Source: Eledone cirrhosa (lineage: Eukaryota). Taken from it: 64,000 bases of DNA. Position numbers and translations under genes: made by a program. Below the pieces are notes generated by a model. It was not told the DNA's origin. It searched no databases and saw nothing but the letters and a program-made list of their open reading frames with translations. Location of the stretch: positions 34,596,001 through 34,660,000 of the forward strand of contig OZ024755.1 of NCBI GenBank assembly GCA_964016885.1, written 5' to 3'. This document shows, piece by piece, positions 57,513 to 57,980 of this stretch; position 1 is the first letter of the stretch, and each line of letters starts with the position of its first letter.

Positions 57513-57690
57513 ATATGTATGTATATATATAGATATAGATATATAAATATACATACACGGGTGTGTATGATAGAAGATTATATTAATAAAAGGAATTCCA
57601 ACTTTGTCTGATTTACTCGTTTTATTTACAATCCTTTAAAATTATAATGATATTATAATGAAATATTATGGTAGAATATTAATTGTTAAT

Positions 57691-57729
57691 TGAACAAGTA
57701 CTTTCATTCTTTCGCAATCTTCAGGTTCA
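57691..57729 (-). ncRNA. Minimal type-I hammerhead motif (left arm)
   Basis: Minus strand TGAAC-CTGAAGA-T-TGC-GAAA-GAA-T-GAAA-GTAC-TT-GTTCA; one stem II mismatch. Confidence 0.65.
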
Positions 57730-57804
57730 TATTCTGTTGTGACAGTCAAGTTTGCAATTTTCAACACAGTTTAAAATTGCCAACTTGACTGTCACTGCAC
57801 ATTA

Positions 57805-57843
57805 TGAACCTGAAGATTGCGAAAGCATGAAAGTACTTGTTCA
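57805..57843 (+). ncRNA. Minimal type-I hammerhead motif (right arm), intact core
   Basis: TGAAC-CTGAAGA-T-TGC-GAAA-GCA-T-GAAA-GTAC-TT-GTTCA. Confidence 0.78.
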
Positions 57844-57980
57844 ATTAACACTTAACATTTAATATTCTACCATACTATTTCATTATAATATCATTATAAT
57901 TTTAAAGGATTGTAAATAAAACGAGTAAATCAGACAAAGTTGGAATTCCTTTTATTAATATATATATATATGTGTGTATA

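Follow-up and report, generated by a model that had tools for sequence, protein, structure and literature searches.

Palindromes with facing hammerhead motifs in Eledone cirrhosa are head-to-head ends of a Penelope-like element that were most likely made afresh with every insertion

Within a 64,000-nucleotide stretch of the Eledone cirrhosa genome (contig OZ024755.1, positions 34,596,001 to 34,660,000; below, the window), a palindrome with a hammerhead ribozyme motif on each arm, one on either strand, occurs twice. The original prediction took it for a mobile, non-coding foldback, retrozyme-like element that is copied as a unit. The locus raises the question of what the arms are and whether such a palindrome moves as a fixed unit or is made afresh each time it appears. 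The answer that we favor, with a probability of about 80%, is that each palindrome consists of two ribozyme-bearing terminal repeats (pLTRs) of a Penelope-like element (PLE) that lie head to head within a TA microsatellite, where the element's own enzyme assembled them afresh on insertion. Published work is cited throughout for the excerpts available of each paper.

Copy A spans 57579-57962 (axis at 57767, loop ACA at 57766-57768) and carries, on one side, a PLE tail that lacks 7 nt and runs into (TA)n (57540-57578, minus strand, outer edge approximate). Copy B, in the opposite orientation, spans 29356-29739 (loop at 29550-29552), with its one-sided tail at 29740-29785 on the plus strand, again running into (TA)n and with an approximate outer edge. 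The arms are 91.0% complementary in copy A and 91.6% in copy B, the space between the facing ribozymes is 77 nt in both, and copies A and B are 94.5% alike across 418 nt. As predicted, they lie 28 kb apart with unrelated flanks: the self-BLAST matches listed for the window at 29 to 31 kb and 57 to 58 kb include no shared flank beyond the (TA)n microsatellite. Alignment also confirmed that they have in common the centre, the one-sided extension and, in the tail-bearing arm, GAA in stem II and a 7-nt deletion. The RNA had been expected to form a long rod, and the predicted fold of copy A is such a rod (-257.6 kcal/mol, z -38).

The claim of a full hammerhead in each arm did not hold, since only one of the four arms is complete. 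This is the minimal type-I motif at 57805-57843 on the plus strand, which reads as had been described, with a helix I of 5 bp, a helix II of 3 bp with a GAAA loop, a self-complementary helix III segment of 6 nt and a predicted cut after 57838. In the tail arm of copy A (57691-57729, minus strand), the core is intact and stem II is broken by a C-to-A change. The motif in the tail arm of copy B (29589-29627, plus strand) has decayed through G8 to A in the core together with C to A in stem II, and that at 29475-29513 (minus strand), also in copy B, through A15.1 to U and a helix III loop that is no longer palindromic. These calls are a direct reading of the sequence against the excerpted description of minimal hammerheads in PMC4209133. 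No Rfam hammerhead was among the 150 matches listed of 240 in the window, and the Rfam check proposed with the prediction, which listed 14 matches for 57600-57940, gave none at E ≤ 10.

The arm is the pLTR of a coding, endonuclease-bearing (EN+) PLE of 4.2 kb with a reverse transcriptase (RT) and a GIY-YIG domain. Two full elements, L031 and L032, form 4.2-kb direct repeats, are 98.6% alike over 4.4 kb and share the layout pLTR, tail, ORF1 (448 amino acids from its ATG), ORF2, 3' untranslated region, pLTR and (TA)n, with an inverted 5'-truncated copy upstream. Self-alignments revealed the combination of direct and inverted pLTRs in L031, L032 and L033, the direct spacing being about 4.2 kb. 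The window arms, each arm of copy A included, match the pLTR of the full-length L031 element at 87 to 92%. In L031, what separates the 5' pLTR from the start of ORF1 is the same sequence as the one-sided extension, which is the known PLE tail. Among the ORF pieces of L031, Pfam recognized RVT_1 (E = 6.5e-07) and, C-terminal to the RT, GIY-YIG (E = 2.4e-06); the parent protein has 33 longer homologues, most of them with RT and PF26215/PF28514. The predicted link to Penelope-like elements is sound, but the non-coding, retrozyme-like foldback that had been proposed is not supported.

Assigned by motifs rather than by an RT tree, the parent fits a Neptune/Nematis-type PLE, for which the excerpt of PMC8557442 supplies the diagnostic features. 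Its protein has CX4CxxC at residues 399-407, within the CX2-5CxxC linker pattern, a CxxC inside GIY-YIG with two later His residues (CCHH), GxKFxP and DKG. A Hydra-clade PLE, with diagnostic features from the same source, was considered and rejected: CCHH is present, CxCX5C and RWK are absent, the motif is DKG rather than DKT, and the element measures 4.2 kb where that clade stays under 3 kb. The single ORF of EN+ PLEs is missing here. ORF1 and ORF2 share about 90 nt, in the -1 frame, in both L031 (4325-4418) and L032 (4535-4628), and this overlap opens with the slippery heptamer T TTT TTA. Of the 336 genomic copies that match the site, 100 were listed, and these retain length and spacing in 97 cases and the heptamer in 93. 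This conservation suggests that a programmed -1 frameshift likely joins ORF1 to ORF2, and this arrangement may be another unusual feature among PLEs with an endonuclease; it is possible that an intron joins them instead. Downstream of the slippery site there is no strong frameshift-stimulating fold, only a weak one (-4.6 kcal/mol). In both copies that were translated in full, ORF2 is interrupted once, which leaves neither fully intact, and ORF1 gave no Pfam match above the cut-off, no match to the 33 homologues and no usable Atlas match. A literature search, with most subscription papers outside its reach, found no ribosomal frameshift in a GIY-YIG PLE.

The repeat is as mobile and numerous as had been supposed. 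Exact matches to the 37-nt ribozyme core number 5,173 in the genome (control, 0), and a centre-spanning pattern counts at least 1,093 palindromes, a lower bound. A separate genome search returned 694 candidates, and all 40 that were scored are near-full palindromes of 90 to 96% identity. Among the first 100 core matches listed, 22 head-to-head pairs face outward within 6 kb, none is tail to tail, and 3 pairs are direct, at 2.2, 4.2 and 4.2 kb. The gap between the facing ribozymes of those 22 pairs is 54 nt in one, 75 to 96 nt in 12 and 330 to 3,926 nt in 9, a spread that also speaks against a foldback element copied as a unit. We parsed 74 palindromes, comprising the 24 best matches and 50 taken by genome position; a tail borders just one side of 65 of them (copy A and 64 recognized by pattern), none has tails on both sides, and in 9 no tail was detected. 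The palindromes are head-to-head end pieces of a PLE, a known end structure, and are ordinary as an element.

Perfect palindromes are a known artefact of long reads, and fold-back during sequencing or assembly might be held responsible for these. Here, about 5 changes on average separate the arms, their ends fall at two distinct fixed points, and the junction has the same biologically placed position at more than 1,000 loci, so that we regard this explanation as having practically no chance of being right.

Whether the palindrome is inherited whole can be judged from how variants are distributed over its arms. Of the parsed palindromes, 56 were kept, 17 being left out for want of a complete arm end and 1 as a tandem duplicate. 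Arms differed by 4.84 changes within a copy versus 9.8 to 10.4 between copies, a contrast reached in none of 10,000 permutations; the 33 position-sampled copies alone gave 5.39 versus 10.0 to 10.9 (again 0 of 10,000). Across the 56 copies, the tail arms of different copies were not unusually alike, and neither were their tailless arms. Subfamily and private variants were mirrored within copies: distal subfamily markers agreed between arms (for example, 22 copies with the marker in both and 1 in a single arm; 19 and 2 for another), and 11 of 30 doubleton variants sat in the two arms of one copy, compared with about 0.3 expected. The nearest partner of an arm was its own partner in only 26 of the 56 copies.

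The centres are equally telling. Forty-nine loci displayed 22 centre types, the commonest of which, a simple centre, accounted for 19 of them. Among 50 long centres listed of 255, we counted 46 distinct ones by eye; the only identical pair is a tandem duplicate, 1.7 kb apart, and the other three repeated pairs are dispersed, each on different subfamily markers. Because the centres are diverse and the arms are alike within copies, we conclude that the family did not spread as a fixed palindrome and that its palindromes were most likely rebuilt at each insertion.

These data bear directly on the proposal that a non-autonomous foldback is copied as a unit, either as a retrozyme-like RNA rod or as MITE-like DNA. 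The genome-wide count suggested with the prediction places the centre of the window pair at 19 loci among at least 1,093, and the sharing by that pair of the centre, the side of the tail and the GAA plus 7-nt deletion in the tail arm is what unit copying would give; so is the dominance of one simple centre, and in PLEs sequence can pass in trans from one pLTR to another (PMC3846280, in excerpt). Against this, centres recur across subfamilies, the 19 loci themselves belong to several subfamilies, with the centre oriented either way relative to the tail, and facing ribozymes cannot excise a monomer from one strand. Nor are the variants described as arm specific tied to one arm in the family. GAA is not a fixed arm marker, being found in 4 tail arms and 2 other arms of the 56 copies and never in both arms of one. 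The 7-nt deletion, which accompanies GCA in 77 arms, is not one either: in 27 loci with GCA and the deletion, plus L124, it lies on several backgrounds, in one arm, in both or in unpaired copies. For the family, unit copying is largely refuted, and as a general explanation we consider it very improbable. A MITE or foldback DNA transposon was also rejected as a class, given the variable centres and the one-sided tail, a target-site duplication being unreadable in (TA)n.

The window pair is a separate matter. GAA combined with the deletion was found in only three arms, two of them those lying 28 kb apart in the window; the exact combination occurs at two places, one of which is the 29.6-kb copy, and the 57.7-kb copy is one base off. 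The third arm is on another contig, with a different junction and a matching partner, the deletion being in both of its arms, which again tells against unit copying. Since two of the three carriers are 28 kb apart and share a centre, and since the tailless arms of both window copies have neither GAA nor the deletion, a local duplication or conversion common to the two copies is plausible from the sequence. What survives of the idea of unit copying is this local shared descent. Under re-creation, the rare combination shared by the pair needs an extra event, and the N arms of the two copies are not mutual nearest relatives. An inverted segmental duplication reaching beyond the element was rejected, as the intervening DNA fails to align. 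The other inverted pair in the window (30152-30875 and 50764-51476, 92% alike) was discarded as evidence of duplication; its members are presumably fragments of the 3' end of an RTE-type LINE and look like a separate element.

Some copies have discordant arms. The discordance is clear in both window copies, L076 and L009, and a few copies are chimeric along the arm. A hypervariable 4-nt site lies just 5' of helix I (arm positions 25-29, about 57798-57803 in the window). It is discordant between arms in about 45% of informative copies, versus about 11% at distal markers; the discordance often consists of two linked changes, and the site differs even between the pLTRs of one young element, L031. 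A single shared template does not account for this. Two RNA templates or ectopic conversion could, and the two are not separable here.

The point at which the arms meet suggests how the palindromes may arise. In long copies, the first T of a TATA box is 31 nt before the junction point, in young and old subfamilies alike. The palindromic stub lacks this box; in copy A, the fixed 5' limit of the arms, which we infer to be the transcription start, is at 57766-57774 on the plus strand. In Penelope and a Chlamys element, the start site is within the pLTR, according to the excerpt of PMC8557442. Of 89 distinct junctions listed, only 1 has natural sequence from upstream of the limit, and long junctions are short repeated pieces of the same 5' end. 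The longer 5' end is on the tail arm as often as on the other arm (7:7 and 3:3), and both orientations also occur among young G-marker copies. The limit suggests that a sense leader RNA is copied from both ends of one break. Our literature search, with Repbase/Dfam and most subscription papers outside its reach, found no account of start-site-bounded pLTR palindromes; other supplements of the cited papers and Repbase/Dfam may already hold this family.

In the mechanism that we favor, a sense leader RNA would begin at the fixed point 31 nt after the TATA box, and reverse transcription would start inside it, about 200 and 250 nt from its 5' end, at the end of the pLTR and the end of the tail. 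With a single break in (TA)n supplying a primer on either side, both cDNAs would run off the 5' end of the RNA and be joined by short template jumps. In longer inserts, reverse transcription would start at the downstream pLTR, and the window copies would reflect later local duplication or conversion. A more specific version, which we think unlikely in this exact form, has a short sense RNA, from the TATA-set start to the tail, reverse transcribed from both break ends, sometimes from two different RNAs joined through the self-complementary helix III of their ribozymes. If true, it would explain the chimeric arms, make the dimer-type hammerhead a device for pairing templates and argue against an antisense-template model.

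The same PLE origin also allows a different route to the second arm, namely, snap-back of a single cDNA or self-priming on antisense RNA, followed by gene conversion and flipping of the arms. In its excerpt, PMC3846280 reads junction palindromes as self-priming and leaves sense versus antisense template open. Mirrored private variants, as in the 11 doubletons above, are a direct prediction of snap-back, although arm-to-arm gene conversion after insertion could also produce them. Simple snap-back, however, puts the longer 5' end on the tail arm every time, contrary to the equal split observed (recombination between arms could have randomized the orientation of the centre), discordant arms need extra events, and the sharp limit behind the TATA box fits the 5' end of a sense RNA better than an antisense template. 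We therefore judge this route to be somewhat unlikely.

What becomes of the ribozyme after insertion was assessed in 112 arms, 71 of which have an intact motif. Eleven core sites accumulated 10 changes (0.0081 per site per arm), compared with 0.0086 elsewhere. No selection on the ribozyme after insertion was seen in these arms, in which the core decays at the background rate. The stem II C (57826 in the window, and equivalents) is the most mutated ribozyme position, changed in 9 of the 112 arms, in 6 of them to A, and never in both arms of one copy. In predicted folding, the ribozyme fold costs 60 kcal/mol inside the palindrome versus 1.8 in a single arm. The stub is probably inert: it has no TATA box, and in read-through RNA from either side its ribozyme would be locked in the rod, the complement being made first. 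In several palindromes (L066-L097 and others), the ribozyme of one arm has been lost through short deletions, as in L083 and L124, which is expected of unstable inverted repeats.

The window holds other repeats. The palindrome at 45445-46000 belongs to a second PLE family; both of its minimal hammerheads are intact, and a tail of about 57 nt lies on one side only. That family has 14,802 genome matches at one mismatch or fewer and a 4,423-bp tandem unit with a 1,329-residue ORF, the end of which resembles the endonuclease of the first family and which gave no Pfam match; of five short palindromes examined, four have their joins no more than a few tens of nucleotides apart. A palindrome at 5813-6164 (90%), with a degenerate hammerhead-like core on each arm and ending in (TA)n, probably represents a third PLE family. 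Further short palindromes, 76 to 97% complementary, lie at 55548-55988, 29052-29222, 32136-32265, 51618-51737 and 61177-61307. An open frame at 28600-28910 has no Pfam match; we take it to resemble the C-terminal restriction-like endonuclease of R4/Dong LINEs.

Comparison with known systems places the family among mobile elements. Metazoan non-LTR retrozymes (PMC7229834, in excerpt) are likewise small and non-coding, with a type-I hammerhead and thousands of copies, but they are direct tandem repeats with canonical ribozymes and circular monomers, whereas we find an inverted pair, a minimal motif and a coding parent. We rejected a retrozyme on two grounds: same-strand neighbors among the first 100 core matches lie only at 2.2 and 4.2 kb, not at 150 to 450 nt, and the arm of the supposedly non-autonomous element belongs to a coding one. 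Repeat finders could mislabel the stubs as MITEs. The hammerhead itself resembles the minimal ribozymes of metazoan PLEs in the excerpt of PMC4209133, with a short helix I, an extra base after A9 and a palindromic helix III suited to dimers. It departs from the usual form in having a helix II of 3 bp over a U-U pair without G10.1-C11.1, and CUU as the cut triplet. Pairs of minimal hammerheads on opposite strands, about 100 to 700 bp apart, are already known from Schistosoma according to the same excerpt. Recently active Penelope families have been described in Octopus vulgaris in PMC13282606, the excerpt of which mentions neither palindromes nor ribozymes.

Poseidon of Anolis carolinensis offers a biochemical parallel (PMC11167929, in excerpt). 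In vitro, the PLE protein nicks and extends both strands of an AT-rich target, and the tail is delimited by two internal positions at which RT begins, as proposed here; ribozyme cleavage needs the protein and is dispensable for insertion. Poseidon belongs to a different clade, and its ORF starts inside the ribozyme, whereas ORF1 here follows the tail; the excerpt describes no fixed junction at the start site.

With EN+ PLEs as excerpted from PMC3846280 and PMC8557442, the family shares the pLTR, the head-to-head inverted copy, the tail at one end, RT with a C-terminal GIY-YIG, and (TA)n targets with no discernible target-site duplication; truncated pLTRs in inverted position, a tail on one side and insertion into (TA)n were already described there. 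It differs in that about half of the head-to-head pairs are without ORF sequence and meet at one fixed point, in a tail of about 45 nt and in a parent with two ORFs instead of one. How tandem and inverted PLE insertions form is listed as unexplained in the excerpt of PMC8557442. With more than 1,000 junctions at a single point behind a TATA box, and subfamily markers in either arm, the family provides a data set on PLE insertion that makes the origin of such insertions, and the choice between sense and antisense templates, testable.
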